Assembly: GCF_963676685.1 (NCBI RefSeq)
Contig: NC_092350.1
Location: 27,528,001 to 27,592,000, forward strand
Direction of reading: 5' to 3'
DNA length: 64,000 nt
Source: Mytilus edulis
Taxonomy: Eukaryota
Positions 7,278-34,440 of the stretch are shown here, piece after piece (positions within the stretch are counted from its first letter, which is position 1; each line of letters starts with the position of its first letter). Position numbers and translations under genes: made by a program. The notes under the pieces are model-generated. The model was not told the origin of the DNA. It saw nothing but the letters and a program-made list of their open reading frames with translations, and made no database searches.

Positions 7278-8300
7278 TCAAAACCAAATACATCCTATTA
7301 TATTTTTTAACATTTTCCTGAATTTTTTATCGACAAATACATATATAAATGGATTCGCCATGTGGTTCAAAATATAAAATCTTTCCACTATTTCCAAAAT
7401 AAATGCTTTCACAAAATATTGTTGAAGAATGTACCTCCCTAGCAACGCTTCTAAAATACTTAATGTCAAGATTGGCGAATAACTTAGCACAAACACTATA
7501 CTTATGATGCAGGATATTTTAGTTATTTTGCTTGAAATTATATGATTTGATCGAATGCCTAAAGTAATTCCATGTTCATTGTTTTGTTTGTTTTCTTTTT
7601 TCTGCATATTTATGAAATAGTTCCTGTATTTTATGTGAGAAAACACATGTACCCCAATCCTAGAATAACACAGAATTAAAAGCACAAAAAAGGTGAGAAA
7701 GAGAGCTCCCAAAATCACGCTGTAAACTCGTGTATAAACAGTTAATTCGAATTCGTCAGCAGACGTGCAATCAAAAGTAGTAAAGTTACTTGCCGAAGCC
7801 GAAATACGAACGCCATAAAAGAATAAGTTTGGCCACGCGAACACCATTGCAACACAACAATTAATTACTGCCATGTATTTAGCATTTTTTGTACACATTT
7901 GTCTACACAGGGGTCTACACGTTCGTAAATAGCGGTCAAGAGATATGGACATTAACATCAGTATCGAAGTACAAATAAACAGATAGTTCAAAGATCGAAA
8001 TAGTTTACATGCCACATCCGAATAAAAATTGTACTGGTATTCCAAGTCAAATATTTCAAAAGGTACTGTAACACCACAGACAAGTAAATCAAAAGCTGCC
8101 AGTCCTAATAACAGTATTCGGTGCGTCGATTGCTTTTTCTTCAAAAGGTATCCAAACAGTAAACAGTTACCTAGGCTTCCGGTTGACGAAAGCATTGCTA
8201 AATACGTTATGAGAATATGATTTCCTTCATTGATATGTTTTTCGTTCGGAATTGACTTCGAGATGTTAGTTAAATTTTTATCCTGTATAAAATCACACAT
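7278..8300 (-). CDS. Class A (rhodopsin-like) GPCR, peptide-receptor-like (CCK/orexin-receptor-like orphan), 340 aa, single coding exon
   Basis: Seven hydrophobic segments; TM1 GN (SLGNCLL), TM2 LAAFDLLVC..VPFE, TM3 C-K and SLDRY, TM4 W-P (FAWPN), ECL2 Cys (FDCT), TM6 FVLSYSP, TM7 NPFIY, helix 8 DKKFRK. Paralogous to the two other GPCRs here. Confidence 0.93.
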   Translation of the reverse strand: MCDFIQDKNLTNISKSIPNEKHINEGNHILITYLAMLSSTGSLGNCLLFGYLLKKKQSTHRILLLGLAAFDLLVCGVTVPFEIFDLEYQYNFYSDVACKLFRSLNYLFICTSILMLMSISLDRYLRTCRPLCRQMCTKNAKYMAVINCCVAMVFAWPNLFFYGVRISASASNFTTFDCTSADEFELTVYTRVYSVILGALFLTFFVLLILCYSRIGVHVFSHIKYRNYFINMQKKENKQNNEHGITLGIRSNHIISSKITKISCIISIVFVLSYSPILTLSILEALLGRYILQQYFVKAFILEIVERFYILNHMANPFIYVFVDKKFRKMLKNIIGCIWF

Positions 8301-13539: not shown

Positions 13540-13820
13540 CCATCGCACTTTAAGTGTGAGACATCGTCGCACTTTAGTGTAGACCATCGTACTTTAGTGT
13601 AGACCATCGCACTTTAGTGTAGACCATCGACCATTGCACTTTAAGTGTGAGACATCGTCGTACTTTAGTGTAGACCATCGCACTTTAAGTGTGAGACATC
13701 GTCGTACTTTAGTGTAGACCATCGCACTTTAAGTGTGAGACATCGTCGTACTTTAGTGTAGACCATCGCACTTTAAGTGTGAGACATCGTCGTACTTTAG
13801 TGTAGACCATCGCACTTTAG
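13540..13820. repeat. Minisatellite, 44-bp higher-order unit built from ~20- and ~24-bp subunits
   Basis: atcgcactttaagtgtgagacatcgtcgtactttagtgtagacc repeats at 13677, 13721 and 13765; shorter subunits upstream. Confidence 0.93.
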
Positions 13821-13862: not shown

Positions 13863-14153
13863 TAGTAGTCAGCACTTTGGTGTTGACATGACTACCATTA
13901 ATTATATGGTCATTTTTTTTTATAAATTTTCTGTTACAAAACTTTGAATTTTTAGAAAAACTAAGGATTTTCTTATCCTAGGAATAGATTACTCTAGCGG
14001 TATTGGCACAACTTTTGGGGAATTTTAGGTCCTCAATGCTCTTCAACTTTGTACTTGTTTGGCTTTATAACTATTTTGATCTAAACGTCACTTATGTAGA
14101 CGAAACGCGTGTTTTGCGTATTAAATTATAATTCTAGTACCTTTGATAACTAT
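13863..14153 (+). mobile_element. ~290-bp retrozyme-like unit with decayed hammerhead (CUGAUGA core deleted)
   Basis: acgtcacttatgtagacgaaacgcgtgttttgcgta at ~14085-14120 lacks tgatgagtc; same 3' end (ctttgataactat) as the 36.8 kb copy. Confidence 0.75.
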
Positions 14154-14923
14154 ATAGGACTGCTATTGACAAAGTTTGACAAAATGTTCTGCAAAATTAC
14201 TGGTGCATTCCTCTAAATTTCTTTATGTATTTTTCATATTAATGTCGATCAGTTTTCTTATTGACTGCAGAGATTATTTCAATCACTTCATTATAAAAAT
14301 CAAGTAAATTTAACAAATTACTGAAAATGAACATTCGCAGTTCATTATGTGTGTCAATTAAGTTTATTGGGATATACTAGTACCGTTATATTAGACGTAT
14401 GCACTCAATGCAATACAAATGCAACTATCAGTAAGACTGATTGAATGATGCACAGCAGCAAATAATCCGAGCCTTACCAGGTTATCTATCATAAGAATAT
14501 ACTGTGATATGTTTTATTCATAATACTACTTTAGCTGGTATCTAAATAAATTGTTTGTTTTGAAGGTACCTAAATAAGCTAACTGCAAAACGAAAGTTTG
14601 AATTATATTTAACATGTTTATGATGATGCTCTATTCTTAGGAAGAAAATCACACAGGAGGGTTACATTGATAAACCAAATGAAAACATAAACATAATTGT
14701 AGATTAAAGGATACGGTTCCAGATATATAATCTAAATGTTGTTGACAATGCTTTTAGTGACAGAACAATCACATTTTTTTATCAGTAATATAAATGGATA
14801 CACGTGGGCTTTAGGATTTTTCCACTTTGTTTTTAATGCATTGTTTTACATCACCACTCAATTATCGTGTACTATATAAGGTAGAATTACAACTGTGAAA
14901 TTTGAACAGTCAAGCAGTGTACA

Positions 14924-16057
14924 ATGGGTTCGATGGAATGGTTCATGCTACAAGAAGTTGCGACGTTTAGAAATGAATCAAACATTAAAACTTTAAGTGA
15001 TTATAACAAAGAAGAAGCATTACGAAGACTGGCTCCATTAATATATTTAGTAGTTATATTTATAATCGGAATAGTTGGTAATACTGTAGTATTGATTGTT
15101 TATCCGCTTACATTTCCAAGAAATACACATAGAACATTCATCGTTGGACTAGCTATTTCTGATTTGCTGGTGTGTTTGATTACTATACCGTTCGAAATTA
15201 TAGAAATGAGATTTCAGTATACGTTCTATAACGTGGTAGCCTGTAAAGTATTCAGAAGTCTTTCGTATTGGTTTAGTCTAGTGTCAATGATAATTTTGAT
15301 AGGATCTTCGTATGAAAAATACAGACGAATTTGTAAACCAATGAAGAAACAGATGACCGTCAAAGCATGTAGGATATACATTGTCACAATTTTTGTACTG
15401 ACACTTTTGTTTGTTTGGCCTAATTTGTTGTTCGGTGGAATACGTTTAGTAAAACTTAGTAATAATATAACTGGACACGACTGTTCATTATCAGACGATT
15501 ATGCTAAAACACTATTTCCGGTTGTCTCTGAAGGTATACTACTCTTTTTCACGATCATTTGTATATGTTTTCTGATAGTGATATATTCAATAATTGGCAG
15601 AAGGATATATATTCAGTCAAGCTTCAGGAAACAATTTGAAACACATTCAAGAGATACTAATACAAATTATGACAGGTCTTCTTTGGGTATAGCTACTACC
15701 GACAGTGTGCATGCTGACACGAAAAAGTCAAAAAACACAATAGAACATGAAGTAAGCGAAAGAGTCAACAAAATTCAGATTCGTTCCGTGCAGAAATTAA
15801 CCAAAATAGTCTTTGTCATAAGTGTGGTGTTTGTTCTTAGCTATATTCCACATTTGACAATAAGCTTAATGACAGCAATCAAAGGAGGGTTTCTTTTGCC
15901 GCCCGGTCCTGTTGTATCAGCCGCTTTACCCATTATAGCACGTTCGTTCATAATTAATAATGTAGCTAATCCGATCATTTATGGATTTATGGACTCTAGG
16001 TTTAGAAAAAACTGCAAATTTCATCTTTTTAAGATATTCAACTGTAAACAGACGTAA
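14924..16057 (+). CDS. Class A GPCR, peptide-receptor-like orphan, 377 aa, single coding exon
   Basis: GIVGNTVV, LAISDLLVCLITIPFE, ACK, SYEKYRRICKP (DRY position), FVWPN, HDCS, FVLSYIP, NPIIYGFMDSRFR; N-terminal sequon NES; ATG in good context (acaATGG). Confidence 0.95.
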   Translation: MGSMEWFMLQEVATFRNESNIKTLSDYNKEEALRRLAPLIYLVVIFIIGIVGNTVVLIVYPLTFPRNTHRTFIVGLAISDLLVCLITIPFEIIEMRFQYTFYNVVACKVFRSLSYWFSLVSMIILIGSSYEKYRRICKPMKKQMTVKACRIYIVTIFVLTLLFVWPNLLFGGIRLVKLSNNITGHDCSLSDDYAKTLFPVVSEGILLFFTIICICFLIVIYSIIGRRIYIQSSFRKQFETHSRDTNTNYDRSSLGIATTDSVHADTKKSKNTIEHEVSERVNKIQIRSVQKLTKIVFVISVVFVLSYIPHLTISLMTAIKGGFLLPPGPVVSAALPIIARSFIINNVANPIIYGFMDSRFRKNCKFHLFKIFNCKQT

Positions 16058-16469
16058 ACCATGTAATGCCTCATGAATTAAAGAAGAATGTTTTATCCGA
16101 TCGGGAGGATTCTTAAGGCTTTTCAGAAACTCATTTCCAGAATCACAAATTTTTCTCCTATATTTCTTCAGCTTGAAGTTGGTACTCTCCCTTTTGGAGA
16201 AATAAGAAGAGCGGCTTCGCTGCATTGAAGGTCAATGGGAAGTCAACATTTATCTGTGTTCAAATCCCGTTGAACTAAATATGATATTTGGCTTATATAA
16301 ATGAAAATAGAAAATAATCATAATGGTATTTTGTCTTTCAACTGCAGCATGCAACGTTTCGGACGTGAGTTTCTAGAATGTCCTACATATCTTTTTTTCT
16401 TCTAATAAATGAAAATATTAAAAACAATATTTTACAATTTATTTTGTTTTAACAAATGACAATCGATAT

Positions 16470-16900
16470 AAGAAGATGTGGTATGAGTGCCAATGAGATA
16501 ACTCTCCATCCAAGCCTCAATTTGTAAAAGTAAACCATTATAGGCCACAGTACGGTCTTCAAAACGGAGCCTTGACTCACACTGAAGAGCAAGCTATAAA
16601 GGGCAACAAAAATAACTAGTGTACAACCATTCAACATTGTTCAAACTGGAAAACCATTTGTCTAATCTAAATTAAAAAAAAAACGAGAAACACTAATGTC
16701 TTATTAACCACATCAACAAACGACAACCACTGAATATAAGGTTCCCGACTTTGGACAGGTGCAAACAAATGCAGCGGGTTTAAACGTTTTAATAGTAATA
16801 GTACACATATACCGACCTTCAACTTCACCTGAAATAATTGAGTAACATCACAACATAGAAAAACATGTACTATTAAATTTCAATTGAAATGGCTTAACTG
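16470..16900 (-). repeat. Dispersed non-coding repeat family D (also 42250-42612, 56000-56392; partials at 3455-3620, 28347-28487, 57283-57400; opposite strand at 21575-21860, 40360-40477, 44835-45086, 49430-49620)
   Basis: Shared aagatgtggtatgagtgccaatgagacaactctccatccaag...ggagccttggctcacaccgaacagcaagctataaagggcccc. Confidence 0.88.
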
Positions 16901-19508
16901 TCAAAAGACATATGAAAAAATCAAGTGAACACACAGAGCAAATAAATTTGACACTATGTAAATACAATACAATAAGGGGTGAAATGTTAAACAATATCAG
17001 AAAGACAACCATAAACTTGGACGACAAATATATACGATTCGGTACGTTACCTAACAATAACTACAGATATTCAGAGGATTTATTCTCTGGTAACAATGAT
17101 TTATGTCCTTTATGAGACCTTCAGTCTGTCATGAAAATTTTCTTATAAAAATGTGAAGTGAAAGGAACACATCCTCCTTTCCTATTGTTAAGTTTCCCTC
17201 TACTGACGCCTATGTTCAACCTTAACGAGTGAACATTACCAATCAATTTGGTATATATATGCATGTTCGTAGTATATTAATAAAGCGTCAAGTTAATATA
17301 CGTTTAGGAAGTTTCCTCTAAATATTTCTTTGCCTTATCAATTTAAGTGGTATAAATGGTCATGATCATAGTGTTTTGTTTTGTATTGCATTGAAATTCT
17401 GTACAGATCATATACTGTTAGCATAACACATAGAAGCTACTTCCTGTACTTCTATGTACTAAGTGCTGTATCTATCATATTCCGAAGAATATTGGTATTT
17501 TGTAACTGTAAAATAAAATAAAAATGTTTAAATGTTATTTTCTTTAAATGTATGATTTGTTAAGTTCATTTTCTGATTAGAGGTAACCGTTGTGATTTCA
17601 CATGCTCTATCTAAACCTTTCACTTGTTCGTGTTGATGTTCTATATTTATGGAACATGGGAAGTGCCTAACGCACAGGCACTTGCCTCGAGAAAAAAAAG
17701 TGACTGTGGCCTAACGTTAACTTGATGATAATAACACAATTTGGTGTCATATGCAAAATTTAGCTGTGACATTCTGTCAACTCTTTGCTAATTCGAATTG
17801 GCGAAGATTTAAAGCTGGCCATACTATTTTGACATGACAATGCTGACATGTAGATGTGTTGGTGTTACTGTTGTAAGAAATTTAGATTCCTTCACTGTGC
17901 AACAAGTGTGTTACGATAATAGGCTGTTTGCCAATTCCCGTAATTGACCCTGTAATTAGAGATCCCTTCATTTAGTTGTCTCCCTTATGAGGGACATAAA
18001 TTATTATTTACAATGGAGAGCTAGCAGAAAGAGCAAATATGCCAGTGCGTAATGTGAGTAATCTTTAAGGTTTTCAAATCTTTTAATTACATTAATTTGT
18101 TGTTCAGCTTAAATACTTTTGTCATCAGAAATAATTTAAAATGAAAAATTAGTTAAACCGGTCCGCCGATACATCACTTTCAATTCATCATGTTTTGCAT
18201 TGGCAAAAGCCATTTTTGTCCGGTATGGAACCAGTCTACGATTGACAAAGGGAAGTAATTTGTTTAAAAAGTAAATTCACAAAAATACTGAACTTAGAGG
18301 AAAGTCCATAATCACATGGCAAAATCAAATAACAAAACGCATCAAAAACGAAGGACAAGACAGGCATTTTCAAATGTAGAAAATGGTGGATTAAACCTGG
18401 TTTTATAGCGCTAACCCTCTCACTTTGATGACAGTCTCATCAAATTCCGTTATATTTACATTGATGCGTTAACTAAACAGACACAATAAATAAAATAGTC
18501 AAAATATGGGTACATCAGTCATCATCGTAAAACAATTTTAAAAGGAACAATTTAACAGAACACAAAAATATCTATCTACAAACACATTCATTGATTTGTG
18601 TGTCTGACGTCAGAAAATTTTATACGTCACATAGATTTGTCGTTCGATGTACATGAACAATTTTAAAATTTACATAGGCATTGTTAATTGTTAGCATATA
18701 GGGTTAAAAAATCAAAGTATGTAAAAATAAATTTCAGAAATAGACCGAGATTGAAAATAGTCCAAAAGTTATATATAGAATTTATAAGAATCCACAAATA
18801 GTTAATTCCACTACGCGAAAAGTGTGTAATAACAGAATCAAATCGGTAATTGGCAAATGGACCATTTCCACATTAAATGTTTGAAGCGCGAGGCTTGCCG
18901 AGCTTTTTGAATATTCAAAATTTAGCTGTTGAGAGTTGAGAAATATCGTCATACACGAGTTATAGTGGTGGAATCTGTTTCGCTAATACTTTGTATCCTT
19001 CCTCTTCAAAGATTTGCATTACGTTGTGTTCCTTATATATGTGACGTCCTCATACATTGTCGCCCTTTTTAATGACGTCACAGTAAAAAGATTCAGAAGA
19101 AAACAAGAAAAATTGACGTCATAATTAAATTTCGACCAATCAGTTGTCGAGAACAGATATTTCACTAGTGAGAAGAAATATTTTTCTCACACCGATTCAA
19201 AAATAAGAAGAAAGCACACACATTAAATAATACTGTTTCTTTGATATTTAACTCGTATTATGTTATGCCATATGACTATGAGTAATGAGTAAAACATTTT
19301 CAATTTGATATATTTATACACAGTCACTACATATGTACATTTGGTTACATTATGGTCATACAGCAAGGACATACTTCGTTAAAAGTCTTTATTCTGAGGT
19401 AATATTAAATCGCATGACTTACGTTCATACAAAATGATATATTCTTATCGTAAAGTATACCGAAATAATATTTAAACGTCTTATTGGCTTTCATAATAAA
19501 ATCTATTT

Positions 19509-20102
19509 TTAACTGAATGCTCCATCAAACCAGAACAAGCACGTGTTTGCTGCAACATGGTCGTAGACACGGTTTGCAAATGTTTTGCAATTGCTAAACA
19601 GTTCATCGAACTCTTTATTCAGCTCATTTTTATTGTAAAGCCAGCAAATCAAATCATTTACACTTTTGCTTCCTGAATCACTTTTTACCAAGTTTATTGG
19701 CGTTCGTCTGTATGTCTGTATATGCTTACATCGGACAGCTGACTCTAACTTGCTTCTCTGTATTGAGATGCAATCCGTATGTTTTTCAATTGACCACCAC
19801 CAAGATTTAGTTTTAAAGATAATGAAAAGATGGTACATAGTAAATGATGTCAATTGCCAGTTGTTTAAAGGTACTTTATATGCGTATACATTTAAAATAC
19901 GTTCCTCAGCATCCACAAGGGAAGAAAGCTTACCTAATCCTGCGTGTTCGATATAATAGTTTATTCCAAATTCATTGTCGGCCTCTGGGTCGAAATATAT
20001 CTGGTTCGACCAGCCTCCTTTTGCACTTTTTCTTTTCCTATACGTTTGACTCTTACTTTTAACTTTAGATCTGCTCGAAAAGGAGGACTTGCTTGCACCC
20101 AT
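19509..20102 (-). CDS. Putative N-myristoylated permuted papain-fold (PPPDE/DeSI- or LRAT-like) protein, 197 aa
   Basis: Internal ATG of the 224-aa ORF has strong Kozak context (acgATGG) and follows a splice-acceptor-like ttttctttctatgtgcattgtag. Begins MGASKS plus a K/R-rich stretch. Motifs ILNVY, YHLFIIF (H91), WWWSIEK, FDELFSNCKTFA (C172). AATAAA on minus strand at 19388-19393. Confidence 0.78.
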   Translation of the reverse strand: MGASKSSFSSRSKVKSKSQTYRKRKSAKGGWSNQIYFDPEADNEFGINYYIEHAGLGKLSSLVDAEERILNVYAYKVPLNNWQLTSFTMYHLFIIFKTKSWWWSIEKHTDCISIQRSKLESAVRCKHIQTYRRTPINLVKSDSGSKSVNDLICWLYNKNELNKEFDELFSNCKTFANRVYDHVAANTCLFWFDGAFS

Positions 20103-21407
20103 CGTGATCAAACTTTTTGACTTAACTACAATGCACATAGAAAGAAAATCAATAGAAATCATAATATTTTTGCAATAATTCATATTTGATATTAATATGC
20201 AGTAGTTTTTACAAAAACAATATTAAAACGGTTGATGCATGGTGATTTGGTAAATTGTGCCTACATTGCAAAATCAATGTGTATATATAGTTCTTTCTGC
20301 AAAAGTGTTTAATCAGTTTGTCCTTTTGATTTTGTCATGACTTCATCGGTCATTTTTCGATGTATGTTTAAGTTGCCCCCTCTGTATCAGTTTTATTTGT
20401 TTAATTGCACAGTTTTTAATATTATAACAAGGAAAATGACGGATGCATTTACTATAATCGGAGGAGGAACTGCGTGTTCAATCAGAGTGCACGATTTCAA
20501 AAACGGCATTAATCTGTTTAAAGGTTGCAGTTTGTATTGTTCATTTTGTTTATATTTGAATTCCCGTCTGTATTGGCTGATTCTCTTCCTGGCTCAATTA
20601 CTAAGTTATATGTGCGGTTTTTTTTTGTATTGTCATGGTTTTTGTTTTTACCATTATATTGTCTGTTTACCTTTACAAGAGAGGTACAAGAGATACTAGA
20701 GGGACATTCAAACTTACATGTATTAGTCGAAAATAAACTAACAACGCCATAGCTAAAAAGAAAAAAAGACCAACCGAGTATGACAAACAAATTCAATAGT
20801 ACTATACAAACACCAAAAACTTGCGGTGATCGCTAGTGCTTCGTTAGAGTAAGCAGATACTGCTTCACATGTGGCACCCGTCGTGTTTAAGTTATGATTT
20901 GTGATTGTTCACTGTTTGTGCTGTCTCTGTTTTCACTTATTGTTTTTGTTGAATCTGCTTTTTAATGAAATAAATATGAAAAGTAATGATTTTACTATTT
21001 TATTTTAATTGTTTTATACATTATTTGTTGTTTTTTTTTGGGGGGGGGGGGAACGGGTGGGGGGGGGGAAAACTTGATAGGGACTTAAAGCAACAACTTT
21101 TTTCTTTAATACGGCGAGAGCATTTCTTGCGCGAAATATTTCTGAACGATTTCTAACAAACCCATTGAAAAGCACATGTTATAAAAAGAGAACCCTGTAG
21201 CTTTTTATCGGACCACTTGTTTATTGATAGTTCAGAACTTACTGCTTTTACTATGAATCTGTTTCTTGAAATTTTTGTTCAGCTTGAAGTTTACGAATTG
21301 AAATGATTTGATATAATTCAAAAGCTTTTTTTTTTTTTTATCATTATGTTAAATGCAGACAAGAGTGTTGGCGCCTTCAAACTAGTTTTGACACGCCTCA
21401 TTCTATA

Positions 21408-24419: not shown

Positions 24420-25100
24420 TATTATGACATTTCTCTTTATATGATGTTCATTTGCCATTATGTTATGTCATTTTACCCTTATTTGATGTGCAAATGACAT
24501 TATATGATGTGCACTTGTCCTTATATGATGTACACTTGTTATTATATGATGTGAACTTGTCCTTATAAGATGTACACTTGTCATTATATGATGTGAACTT
24601 GTCCTTATATAATGTCCAAACACATTTATATGAGATGCAAACATCTTTATATCATGTCCACAATTCATTATATGATGTGCTTTTTCCATTATGTTATGTG
24701 ATTGCGTCCTTATATTATGTGATGCTTTCCTTGTACGATGTAGAAACGGCATTATGTGATGTGCAATCACCTTTATACGATATGCAATCACCTTTATATG
24801 ATGACAATTTTACATTATCGGATGTGCAAATTATCTTATATGATGTGCAAATGGTCTTATATGATGTGCAAATTATCTTATATCATGTACAGATGTCTTT
24901 ATATTATATGCAAACTTCTTTATATGCTGTGAACGTATACTTATGTTATGTGCTAACATCGTTACATGATGTGGTAAGGTCATTATATTACGACAATGTA
25001 ATATCATAGGTTGTGGTTCGGTTTACATCTTTACATGGTGTCAGAACATCATTCATTATGATGATGTCGAAACATCATTAAGATGATGTGCATTCATCGT
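24420..25100. repeat. Degenerate 21-bp tandem array within a dispersed element
   Basis: ttatatgatgtgcaaatNNNN period gives heptad-periodic ORFs on both strands. Array and flank 25050-25175 recur inverted at 28670-28935. Confidence 0.88.
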
Positions 25101-28959: not shown

Positions 28960-30795
28960 ATATCAAAACTCAACGTTATAATTTTTTATCTAAAGATATC
29001 GATACAGCTGATGTACTAAGAGCAAAAACTACAAGACATGGACTAAAATCATTTTGTTATAGTGCTGCACAATTATGGAATGAGCTGCCAAACCACATAC
29101 GACTGGAAACTTCTCTAATTCAATTTTCCGATTTAATAAAATTGAGAATGGAAATGGGGAATGTGTCAAAGAGACAACAACCCGACCAAATAAAAAACAA
29201 CAGCAGAGGGTCACCGACAGGTCTTCAATGTAGCGAGAAATTCCCGCACCGGAGGCGTCCTTCAGCTGGCCCCTACACAAATATATACTAGTCCAGTGAT
29301 AATGAACGCCATACTAATTTCCAAATTGTACACAAGAAACTAAAATTAAAATTAAAATAATACAAGACTAACAAAGGCCAGAGGCTCCTGACTTGGGACA
29401 GGCGCAAAAATGCAGCGGGGTTTAACATGTTTGTGAGATCTCAACCCTCCCCCTATACCTCTAACCAATGTAGTAAAGTAAACGCATAACAATACGCACA
29501 TTAAAATTCAGTTCAAGAGAAATCCGAGTCTGATGTCAGAAGATGTAACCAAAGAAAATAAACAAAATGACAATAATACATAAATAACAACAGACTACTA
29601 GCAGTTAACTGACATGCCAGCTCCAGACTTCAATTAAACTGACTGAAAGATTATGATTTCATCATATGAACATCAGGCACAATCCTTCCCGTTAGGGGTT
29701 TAGTATCATACCATCATAACATATATGAGAAGAACATAACCCGTGTCATGCCAACAACTGTTTTTAGAATAAATGTGTTTAGTTCCGATGCAAAGACCTT
29801 ATCAGTGACTCAATATTAACGCCAAACTATGCAATCTTTAATGACTTGACAACAGTATCGTAATTATATCCCTTCTTAATAAGTCTATTCAAAGGTTTTG
29901 TAAGTTTCTGAGGTGAATACTGACACCTTCGTGCTTTATAAAGAATATTACCATAAAAAATTGGATGTGAAATACCTGAACGTATTAGAAGTCTGCATGT
30001 TGAGCTATATTTACGAATGATGTCTTTATACCGATGATAAAATTTAGTAAATGTTTTGACTAGTTTGTGATATCGAAAACCCTGGTGTAATAATTTTTCA
30101 GTAATACATAAATTTCTCTCGTTAAAATCGAAAACATTGTTACATACACGAGCGAATCGTACAAGTTGAGATATATAAACACCGTAAGATGGTGACAAGG
30201 GAACGTCACCATCTAAAAACGGATAATTAACGATAGGAAATGAAAAATCATCCCTTTTATCATAAATTTTAGTATTCAGCTTTCCATTAGTGATATAGAT
30301 ATCAAGATCGAGAAAAGGGCAGTGGTCATTGTTAGTATTAGCTTTATTTAAAGTAAGTTCAACAGGATAAATTTCATTAATATACATACTGAAGTCGTCA
30401 TTATTGAGAGCCAAAATATCATCCAAATATCTAAAAGTATTATTAAATTTGTTTATCAGATGTTGTTTCGATGGGTCTTTGCTTAATACAGACCTAGAAT
30501 GGCAGTTTATGCCAATGACATGCATCCAATTAGTTACTGTACCTTGTGATATGAGCTTAGTTTGGCTTTTTGCTGCTTTCATTCAAAATTTGTTCGCTTT
30601 GATTTTATAATGTTTCTGCATGAACAGTATTTTATATTGCTTATGTACTTCAATGCTATATGTTTTTTTGTTGTCTTATTGTAATGTATGTAAAAACTAT
30701 CTTTGTTTAAATATGTATGTGCGTTTGCATGTTGTGTGTGTGTGTATGTAGGTATCGACAATAAATAAAAATTTGATTTGATTTGGTTTGTTTGA
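28960..30795 (+). mobile_element. 3' end of a CR1/L2-type LINE, interrupted by the PLE at 29139-30482
   Basis: GLKSFCYSAAQLWNELPNHIRLETSLIQFSDLI is a typical RT C-terminal tail. It continues in frame after the insertion as QT*NGSLCQ*HA (degenerate W-N-G-x-x-C-x-C). AT-rich 3'UTR ends in aataaa plus a (tttga)n-like tail at ~30760-30795. Confidence 0.72.
29139..30482 (-). mobile_element. 5'-truncated Penelope-like retroelement (family A): RT C-terminal half plus ~690 bp 3' region
   Basis: Uninterrupted frame with FRYLDDIL, CPFLDLDI, KIYDKRDDFSFPIVNYPFL, YGVYISQLVRFARVC; stop at 29827 with no GIY-YIG. Flanked by ttaata at 29133-29138 and 30483-30488. 3' part is near-identical to 1288-1682. Confidence 0.88.
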
Positions 30796-31904: not shown

Positions 31905-32936
31905 ATGACCAACAAGACTTTAGAGGAATATAGTGAAGAGGAAGCCAATCGCCGGCTGATTCCAATTATCTACCTTTGCATACTGATGACTGTTGGGATA
32001 ATAGGGAATGCCCTTGTTCTCATTATATATCCTATGAAATTTTCGGTCAGTACACACAGAACATTCATTACTGGACTTGCAATACCGGATATTCTAGTTT
32101 GCCTTGTAATCATTCCATTCGAAATAGTAGAAATGCGATATCAGTATAGATTCTACAATGCGATATTATGTAAATTGTTTAGAACATGTTCACATTGGTT
32201 TGGCATGGCCTCTATATTTGTACTTACTCAATTATCTTATGATACATACCAAAGAATCTGCAAACCATTCAAGGAACAAATTTCGATTAAAAAGGCAAAG
32301 ATTTACATCGGAGGTGGATATATTATAACGTTTTTCTTATCTAGTTTAAGCTTTTTTGGGAGTGGTATTCGAATTGTGTCGCTCGACAACTTTACCGTAG
32401 GACATGATTGTTCCCTTGCTGATGAATATGTTGATACCTTACTTCCGGTCATTGGTGAGGGTATCCTGACGCTATTGATTTTTACTTGTATTTTCTTTCT
32501 AGTATTGATTTATTCTCTAATCGGAAGAACGATATTTATACAATCAAGATTTAGAAGACAATTTCGCGCCGACCCGTCACCAGAATCACGGGAATCTAAT
32601 GCAACTAACAAAATATTCACTATTTCAGAGACAAAACATTCAGAAAAAACAAATCAAAAATCGCTGGAATCACCATTAAACCGTGTCACTAAGATTGCAT
32701 TCGTGATAACTGTCGTGTTTATACTTAGCTTCATACCACATGCGATTATAAGTTTATTAACAGCATTGAAAGGTTCTTTTCTAGTAGAACCCGGATCTGT
32801 GGCTTCTTTGATCATGCCTATATTAGCACGATCTGTGATGATAAATAATGTAGTCAATCCTATTGTTTATGGTTTTATGGACAAGCGTTTTCGACAAAGT
32901 TGTAATATGATGTGGATTTGCTGTAGGTCTAGATAA
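31905..32936 (+). CDS. Class A GPCR, peptide-receptor-like orphan, 343 aa, single coding exon; closest paralog of 14924-16057
   Basis: GIIGNALV, LAIPDILVCLVIIPFE, LCK, SYDTYQRICKP, HDCS, FILSFIP, NPIVYGFMDKRFR, C-terminal Cys cluster (candidate palmitoylation). N-terminus KTLEEYSEEEANRR matches KTLSDYNKEEALRR of the paralog. Confidence 0.94.
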   Translation: MTNKTLEEYSEEEANRRLIPIIYLCILMTVGIIGNALVLIIYPMKFSVSTHRTFITGLAIPDILVCLVIIPFEIVEMRYQYRFYNAILCKLFRTCSHWFGMASIFVLTQLSYDTYQRICKPFKEQISIKKAKIYIGGGYIITFFLSSLSFFGSGIRIVSLDNFTVGHDCSLADEYVDTLLPVIGEGILTLLIFTCIFFLVLIYSLIGRTIFIQSRFRRQFRADPSPESRESNATNKIFTISETKHSEKTNQKSLESPLNRVTKIAFVITVVFILSFIPHAIISLLTALKGSFLVEPGSVASLIMPILARSVMINNVVNPIVYGFMDKRFRQSCNMMWICCRSR

Positions 32937-33964: not shown

Positions 33965-34440
33965 ATGTTCGCCAACTTCGCCAACGTCGCCAACATTTAC
34001 GAAATCATTACTGTTCGCCAATGTTGCCAACGTTGCCAACATTTACGAAATCATTACTGTTCGACAACGGCGCCGACGTCGTCAACATTTACGAAATGAA
34101 TACTGTTCGCCAACGTCGCCAACATTACTTAATTATTACTGTTCGCCAATGTCTCCAACGTCACCAACATTTAAATCATTACTGTTCGTCAATGTCGCCA
34201 ACGTCCCATACATTTATGAAATCAATACTGTTCGCCAACGTCACCAATTTAAGGAAATCGTTATTGTTTGCCAACATAACCAATAATTATGTAATCATAA
34301 CTATTCGCAAACATTTACGAAATAATACTGTTCGCCAATGTCACTATCATCGCCAACCTTTACGAATCCTGTACTGGTCACCAATATTTACTCTTCGCCA
34401 ATTTTTTAGAAAGATTGATGTTCGCCAACCTTTACATAAT
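33965..34440. repeat. Tandem array of ~37-46-bp units with 9-bp subrepeats
   Basis: tactgttcgccaacgtcgccaacatttacgaaatcat repeated about ten times, decaying to the right. Confidence 0.9.

Follow-up and report, generated by a model that had tools for sequence, protein, structure and literature searches.

The window, a stretch of 64,000 nucleotides of Mytilus edulis DNA, carries on its minus strand a gene for a 197-residue protein that is predicted to be a circularly permuted papain (NlpC/P60) thiol enzyme with a His-Glu-Cys active site, closest in fold to the PPPDE/DeSI enzymes. The family to which this protein belongs is large, unnamed and invertebrate, and its fold and chemistry are of a known kind. 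Part of the family likely carries a selected myristoylation signal at the N-terminus, and the mussel protein may act at a membrane on fatty-acyl substrates.

Gene model and transcription

The minus-strand frame from 20183 to 19509 is open over 224 codons, and the 197 residues of the protein are counted from the ATG at 20102. The translation contains, in order, MGASKS, RSKVKSKSQTYRKRKSAK, ILNVY, YHLFIIF, WWWSIEK, and FDELFSNCKTFA; these motifs and the residue numbers H91, E106, and C172 had been quoted in a preliminary description of this DNA, and all are correct in the translated ORF 20102-19509. The start had been described there as a Kozak-optimal second ATG. The context is indeed strong (acgATGG, with A at -3 and G at +4), but the in-frame ATGs of the open frame are at 20183, 20159, 20135, and 20102, so this ATG is the fourth. 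It lies 23 bases past a pyrimidine tract and an AG at 20127-20126 and is the first ATG after this splice acceptor. The longer ORF of 224 residues was rejected as the product because its first three ATGs are upstream of the acceptor AG. The features are collected in Table 1.

Table 1. Features of the enzyme gene, with the neighbouring receptor genes as context.
Feature	Position	Strand	Basis or remark
Coding sequence, single coding exon	19509..20102	-	197 aa + stop; permuted NlpC/P60 (PPPDE-like) thiol enzyme, predicted
MGASKS, predicted N-myristoylation signal (Gly2, Ser6)	20085..20102	-	Family enrichment; 3/3 in-genome paralogues MGxxxS
Polybasic Ser-rich stretch, residues 11-28	20019..20072	-	10 K/R in first 30 aa; low pLDDT
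His91, predicted catalytic base, start of strand 90-97	19830..19832	-	105/107 members
Glu106, predicted third triad residue, WWWSIEK strand	19785..19787	-	106/107 members; 15 residues past His
Phe165 at the family's conserved Tyr position (Cys minus 7)	19608..19610	-	Tyr 96/107, Phe 8/107
Cys172, predicted nucleophile, start of helix 170-183	19587..19589	-	101/107 members
5' untranslated part of coding exon	20103..20125	-	Probable-RNA contigs end at 20113-20127
Splice acceptor, pyrimidine tract and AG	20126..20160	-	Contig ends; junction in M. galloprovincialis model
Probable 3' UTR, AATAAA at 19393-19388	19297..19508	-	Contigs reach 19297-19344; cleavage site not fixed
Class A GPCR, context only	7278..8300	-	Pfam 7tm_1, intronless ORF
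Class A GPCR, context only	14924..16057	+	Pfam 7tm_1, intronless; depth 0 in all four runs
Class A GPCR, context only	31905..32936	+	Pfam 7tm_1, intronless ORF

Four runs were mapped over 14000-21280. Three of them, X1, X3, and X4, are sets of contigs whose source runs are taken, as a guess, to be RNA. These contigs cover the enzyme gene from 19327 to 20127 (X1), 19297 to 20113 (X3), and 19344 to 20123 (X4, with a gap). The X1 and X4 contigs stop at the acceptor, and their 60 and 137 further letters are unmatched in 14000-21280, as expected of a spliced upstream exon. Splicing into an acceptor near 20125, which had been proposed as a check on the gene, is thus supported by probable-RNA contigs that cover the gene and break at that site. 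Furthermore, a public M. galloprovincialis model has the same VKSKSLITMG junction. The intron donor lies outside 14000-21280. In the raw RNA run X24, of which 12.4 million reads (about 19%) were mapped, the depth is 0 in the coding bins, suggesting that expression is low or restricted. The depth is 0 in the unique sequence at 14243-16186, which holds the GPCR gene at 14924-16057, and at 17159-17887; the remaining deep bins in 14000-21280 are repeats.

Family and conservation

A single-sequence search gave 16 homologues at E ≤ 4e-28, and a profile built from 14 sequences found 912, 562, and 176 clusters at E ≤ 0.001, 1e-10, and 1e-30, respectively, among 1.84 billion representatives; the best 150 of the 912 clusters were inspected, and the weakest may be other permuted-papain families. 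With this many relatives, the gene is real, far beyond chance. The closest named relatives are proteins of Mytilus edulis and M. galloprovincialis, the former differing from the window protein at 12 of 197 positions. Other named members come from Dreissena, Mercenaria, Mactra, Lineus, three Daphnia species, Caenorhabditis bovis, and the coral Oculina, and most records are nameless. Two members are already labelled 'PPPDE domain-containing protein' in UniRef. The nearest Atlas clusters are unnamed (for example, one of 548 members, mostly nematode, and one of 104, mostly arthropod), and the nearest named ones, to be taken as leads only, are PPPDE (0.89), CLN5 (0.83), TseH (0.82), and IcsB_M (0.82).

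The family had been called divergent, and this description fits, since the query has no Pfam match at E ≤ 1 and the family sits below the Pfam cut-off. Peptidase_C97 of Pfam matches 65 of the 107 aligned members at E ≤ 0.01, and the curated cut-off for PF05903 (29.2 bits) is narrowly passed by 3 of 40 longer members. Searches of NCBIfam and PHROGs gave no real match. The alignment consists of 107 single-domain members of near full length, chosen from 180 collected proteins. In it, H91 is kept in 105 members, E106 in 106, and C172 in 101, together with R132 in 106 and W103 in 101, and the full H/E/C triad is present in 100. The three residues proposed for the active site from the mussel sequence are therefore conserved in homologues.

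Two to four tandem domains are found in 31 of the 208 collected proteins with a domain match, and the second domain often lacks the His or the Cys in a rough motif check. The protein P0048 of Caenorhabditis bovis has four tandem domains, of which the first two have the His and Cys motifs and the last two are without the Cys motif in the same kind of rough check. In P0154 of Mercenaria (655 aa), a DZIP3-like HEPN domain precedes the family domain in a fusion. The family also shows lineage-specific expansions; the deep branches are not resolved in our quick tree of 55 chosen rows. A fringe match from Trypanosoma grayi (P0192) was rejected as a member, as it is without the NC motif. Insensitive pattern scans, which could miss distant relatives, found none in viral contigs (0 of 10 stretches) or prokaryote genomes (0 of 36). 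We found no description of the family in the literature, including the main text of the 2023 papain classification; the supplementary tables of that work, or Iyer et al. 2004, may list it.

Predicted fold and relation to known enzymes

The AlphaFold2 model of the mussel protein has a mean pLDDT of 87.8 and a pTM of 0.82. His91 starts a strand at 90-97, Glu106 is on a strand at 102-107, and Cys172 starts a helix at 170-183. The predicted model has the features of the superfamily: the His comes before the Cys and sits on a strand, the core is a five-stranded sheet, and the Cys opens a helix. In an exhaustive structure alignment with 48,161 chains, the best match is DeSI-1 (2wp7), with 115 residues aligned within 66-196 at an rmsd of 3.5 and a Z of 8.5, barely above the 7-8 quoted as typical for the top hit of an unmatched model. 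Next come TseH (Z 6.6), CLN5 (5.8), Aichivirus 2A (5.0), and PLAAT4 (4.5), with YiiX and BcPPNE lower, and each of the top five is a permuted NlpC/P60 protein. In PDB and BFVD, no Foldseek match reached E ≤ 0.001; the weak rows included CLN5, TseH, Ac81, DUF4105, and picornavirus polyproteins. When solved structures were searched by sequence, neither the query nor two profiles found a meaningful match. A second structure comparison could not include DeSI-1, so its absence there carries no meaning.

The model and its top match agree with the earlier assignment, and a circularly permuted papain fold, nearest to that of PPPDE/DeSI, is predicted. Given this match and the secondary structure of the model, we infer that His91 and Cys172 would be adjacent in space. 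The 'unusual WWW strand' of the preliminary description is the third core strand of the family and carries E106. Residues 31-62 (W31-x4-YF-x-P) are conserved and well predicted, and the DeSI alignment does not extend to them. The DeSI-1 dimer and the tandem-domain members prompted a homodimer prediction, which had a score of 0.00 and gave no verdict, and is evidence neither way.

The likeness to PPPDE/DeSI (MEROPS C97, PF05903) lies in the permuted core of residues 66-196, the His-before-Cys order, the NCxxF helix, and an aromatic residue seven before the Cys, as in the Tyr101/Cys108 pair given for PPPDE1 (PMC3142127). However, DeSI-1 has 14% identity to the mussel protein, for which Pfam has no match, and PPPDE1 has a Phe and a water where the mussel family has a conserved Glu at His+15. 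Unlike DeSI, the family also has the extra conserved N-terminal part (31-62) and the WWWSIEK strand, as well as the lineage-specific expansions and tandem-domain forms. Furthermore, the mussel enzyme has a single coding exon, whereas the DeSI-like matches in the same genome are split into exons elsewhere: DeSI-1- and DeSI-2-like exons are found on C3 and C9. The DeSI-1 His-strand exon of the genome gave no alignment with the family profile, and the Cys helix alone of the DeSI-1-type exon aligns with it (24 columns, probability 45.5, E 0.0002). The window gene was rejected as the mussel orthologue of DeSI-1 or DeSI-2 on account of these separate genes and the failure of the His-strand exon to align.

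The YiiX/YaeF enzymes (C92; 2if6 and 3kw0) share the permuted fold, at Z 4.0 and 3.6, and a His-Glu spacing of 15, as in His49-Glu64 of YiiX/BcPPNE (PMC3142127). They differ in being bacterial and viral, in another Tyr-Cys spacing, in the weaker fold match, and in having no Pfam match among the 107 members. LRAT/PLAAT proteins (PF04970; PLAAT4, 7zot) share the permuted fold (Z 4.5, 89 residues aligned), a His box, and an NC motif, and are membrane-associated enzymes acting on lipid acyl groups, as is proposed for the mussel protein. The LRAT motif is NCEHF, whereas the mussel family has NC[KQ]xF; Pfam LRAT matches 2 of the 107 members and not the query, and the predicted anchor of the mussel enzyme is an N-terminal myristate. 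An NCEHF match occurs elsewhere in the same genome (L009). CLN5 (6r99) and TseH (6v98) have the permuted NlpC/P60 fold in common with the mussel protein, with 12-14% identity, but CLN5 is lysosomal and glycosylated and TseH is a secreted bacterial effector, whereas the mussel protein, without an evident signal peptide, is predicted to be cytosolic. Permuted-papain ORFs of another kind are present at L008 (G000:C13:44954200-44954436) and L011 (G000:C1:43555994-43556083); they have the motifs HRWI...Y..F and Y.L..NNCH.FAN and a Cys-rich end 'CP.WC', and are possibly secreted.

Active site

According to Xu et al. (PMC3142127), the catalytic site of NlpC/P60 enzymes consists of four residues, namely a Cys, a His, a polar residue, and a Tyr; the site of YiiX is His49/Glu64/Tyr115/Cys128, and that of PPPDE1 is His38/Tyr101/Cys108, with Phe in the third position. 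In the mussel family, the polar third residue is present as E106, the His-to-Glu spacing is 15 residues in 97 of 104 members, and a Tyr or Phe is found seven before the Cys in 93 of the 99 members having both. Since the first spacing is that of YiiX and the second is that of PPPDE1, the family looks, from its sequences, like a combination of a true triad with a DeSI-type Cys helix.

The canonical Tyr before the Cys helix is present in 96 of the 107 members, but the window copy has Phe165. This Phe is shared with a sister, P0003 (59% identity, SH-aLRT 96), which retains H/E/C, and with six other members. Replacement of the equivalent Tyr in Cln5, Tyr258Asp, is reported to cripple that enzyme (PMC9012467). 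By analogy, the Tyr-to-Phe change at 165 may lower activity, although Asp is a harsher change than Phe. The β1-β2 loop has 16 residues in 92 of the 107 members, with conserved bulky hydrophobic residues at 79, 82, 84, 88, and 89, and this loop is described as building a hydrophobic S1 pocket common to permuted NlpC/P60 enzymes (PMC3142127). The basic residues K107, R116, and R132 are also kept by the family.

N-terminal region

A Met-Gly start is found in 40 of 147 representatives, compared with 20 of 502 (4%) for an internal M-G control, and 36 of these 40 have Ser or Thr at position 6, compared with 135 of 1101 (12%) for an internal Gly control. An MGxxx[S/T] start is therefore present in 36 of the 147 representatives, and the MG start itself in only about a quarter of them. 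All three paralogues in the genome begin with MGxxxS about 15 bases past a ttttcag or tttcag acceptor-like site, in the same layout as the window gene. Given this enrichment and the starts right after acceptors, myristoylation is likely a selected trait of part of the family, and the earlier reading of MGASKS as a myristoylation pattern gains family-wide support.

The window protein has 10 K/R in residues 1-30, whereas the 40 MG-starting representatives have at most 6, and the basic patch was rejected as a family feature on this count. Myristate combined with a basic patch targets acidic membranes, as in Src and MARCKS, and an anchor of this type had been proposed for the mussel protein. The basic cluster is indeed beside the myristoyl site, but it is a Mytilus addition. 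It contains RKRK, which fits a classical monopartite nuclear localisation signal. The patch is predicted to be either a second signal for membrane binding or a signal for nuclear localisation. Of the public models, one from M. galloprovincialis begins further upstream, with an in-frame MPWIEYYV that would leave Gly2 internal, and two others start with MG. No upstream coding exon for MPWIEYYV turned up in the window or in the 20 kb adjoining it, and a genome-wide pattern search found none either.

Mytilus copies

The nearest 90% cluster has eight records, of which three are frameshifted just past the Cys and two end at residue 101; two of the frameshifted records are probably one gene, and the early ends may be stops or contig edges. 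These near-identical Mytilus records (P0002, P0019, P0020, P0021, and P0024) are possible loss-of-function alleles. The three paralogues on C5 form their own clade (SH-aLRT 99 in the quick tree), apart from the window gene. In L003 (G000:C5:1513569-1514072) and L004 (G000:C5:57117397-57117840), the His, Glu, Tyr, and Cys are all retained. L002 (G000:C5:57864830-57865357) has an intact frame and an MGxxxS start, but the His is replaced by Gln and the Cys by Ser; judged by these residues, it is a catalytically dead copy, sister to the intact L004, which is about 750 kb away. In X1 and X3, the listed variants give synonymous/nonsynonymous codon counts of 5/5 and 3/7, against 114/477 sites. About 19% of sites are synonymous, so these counts, although small, lean to purifying selection.

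Neighbouring receptor genes

The three flanking GPCRs belong to a large and scattered family of intronless class A genes, with at least 109 matches genome-wide (796 candidates). A bigger cluster, with 16 listed copies at C7:34.4-35.1 Mb, lies about 7 Mb further on the same contig, and none of the four enzyme matches listed for the genome is in it. No GPCR ORF of the flanking kind was found within about 10 kb on either side of the three paralogues, which sit on another contig, and among the receptors listed for the family, the one nearest to them is some 7 Mb away. No GPCR ORF was found at 13 metagenome enzyme loci either, a weak test on short contigs. None of the three runs covering the enzyme gives any depth over the GPCR at 14924-16057, where the contigs show presence, not absence. 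With receptors of this kind numbering in the hundreds, a gene can be expected to lie between some of them by chance alone, and the place of the enzyme among the GPCR genes appears coincidental. The functional link to the GPCRs put forward in the preliminary description, and called speculative there, finds no support in the paralogues or in the coverage of the adjacent receptor.

Elsewhere in the window, at 29827-30582 (minus strand), 38045, 61064, and 12609, there are reverse-transcriptase-like retroelement fragments of one repeat family, with a KIYDKRDDF motif; they were found by eye, and the longest is without a Pfam match. Minisatellite arrays at 24437-24953, 13540-13820, and 33966-34274 have units of 21, 44, and about 46 bases, and the first and last give spurious ORFs. 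A tandem array with about 85-base spacing at G000:C8:8.23-8.32 Mb (L027-L035) was a chance match in a pattern search.

Proposed function

We suggest that the mussel protein is a membrane-held, likely myristoylated His-Glu-Cys thiol enzyme that acts on fatty-acyl esters or thioesters, of the depalmitoylase, phospholipase, or transacylase type, a proposal by analogy that we regard as having an even chance of being right. This reading comes from the lipid anchor predicted for the protein, from the conservation of a hydrophobic loop ahead of His91, and from the activities of the fold neighbours; the substrate class is read from those neighbours, and a shared fold shows no function. Fatty-acyl activity has been reported for four of the five best fold neighbours: PPPDE1, PPPDE2, and Cln5 are S-depalmitoylases on artificial substrates (PMC9012467), TseH had phospholipase activity in one of two assays (PMC12994826), and PLAATs are described as releasing fatty acids (PMC10318531). 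In the proposed mechanism, the Gly2 myristate and the basic patch would dock the enzyme on the cytosolic face of acidic membranes. E106 would orient H91, which would activate C172, and C172 would take the acyl chain as a thioester in a pocket formed by the hydrophobic loop 79-90 and residues 165-168. The acyl group would then be released to water or handed to an acceptor.

A fatty-acyl thioesterase or transacylase seems likelier than a deubiquitinase or deSUMOylase. A membrane-tethered isopeptidase or peptidase of the DeSI-1/2 kind, whether deubiquitinase, deSUMOylase, or other amide hydrolase, is by analogy a possible reading but on balance an unlikely one. In its favour, the fold is matched best by DeSI-1, Peptidase_C97 dominates the Pfam matches, the Cys-helix motif aligns with the DeSI-1-type exon of the genome, and the conserved K107, R116, and R132 could bind a protein substrate or a carboxyl terminus; DeSI proteins, moreover, are reported to take SUMO off a selected substrate (PMC4281951). 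However, the genome has separate DeSI-1- and DeSI-2-like genes, with a DeSI-1 His-strand exon that does not align with the family profile, the peptidase activity of DeSI is described as weak and its thioesterase activity as high (PMC9012467), and a predicted lipid anchor suits a membrane substrate. Another reading is that RKRK is a nuclear signal, that translation begins in an upstream exon, and that the protein is not myristoylated. The resemblance of RKRK to a monopartite signal and the M. galloprovincialis model with MPWIEYYV would fit this, but the two public models that begin with MG, the strong enrichment of MGxxx[S/T] in the family, and the failure to find the upstream coding exon make it very unlikely.

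The family could also be enzymatic while the Mytilus window copy itself is weakened or dispensable under relaxed selection. Phe at 165, the five of eight near-identical records that are frameshifted or end early, the loss of His and Cys in one of three paralogues, and the lack of coverage in the 12.4 million raw RNA reads of X24 point in this direction, and mussels are said to have many dispensable genes (PMC7653742). Nevertheless, we consider it decidedly unlikely: the window allele, the M. edulis model, and P0023 are all intact, Phe also occurs in P0003 with H/E/C kept and recurs in six other members, the variant counts lean the other way, and contigs of three probable RNA runs cover the gene. 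Most improbable is a functional partnership with the flanking GPCRs, in which the enzyme modifies them or makes their ligand and has been kept adjacent for that reason. Its position between three class A GPCR genes and its predicted membrane location agree with such a role, and a promoter might be shared with the head-to-head GPCR at 31905, since the 5' exon would lie on that side. Against this stand the paralogues without a GPCR ORF within about 10 kb, the 16-copy C7 cluster without a listed enzyme match, the GPCR-free metagenome loci (on short contigs), and the absence of coverage of the GPCR at 14924-16057 in runs that cover the enzyme. The GPCR partnership would have been the surprising part, and it is without support.

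As an extension of the fatty-acyl reading, the family might form a hitherto overlooked group of myristoylated lipid-acyl enzymes, with members from corals to molluscs, nematodes, and crustaceans, and might function in cell-autonomous membrane defence. Fatty acids would be stripped or transferred on pathogen-containing membranes or on acylated pathogen proteins. The lineage-specific expansions, tandem live-plus-dead domains, dead paralogues, broken alleles, and the HEPN fusion in Mercenaria resemble immune-like evolution, but we consider this extension quite improbable.

Significance

At least 562 clusters (E ≤ 1e-10) of predicted invertebrate permuted-papain enzymes, mostly missed by Pfam, are brought together by this family, which combines a YiiX-type His-Glu triad and a DeSI-type Cys helix, often with a myristoyl signal. 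The small single-exon proteins of the family, with their natural Tyr/Phe and dead variants, are simple test cases for deciding between isopeptidase and fatty-acyl thioesterase as the real activity of PPPDE-type enzymes.
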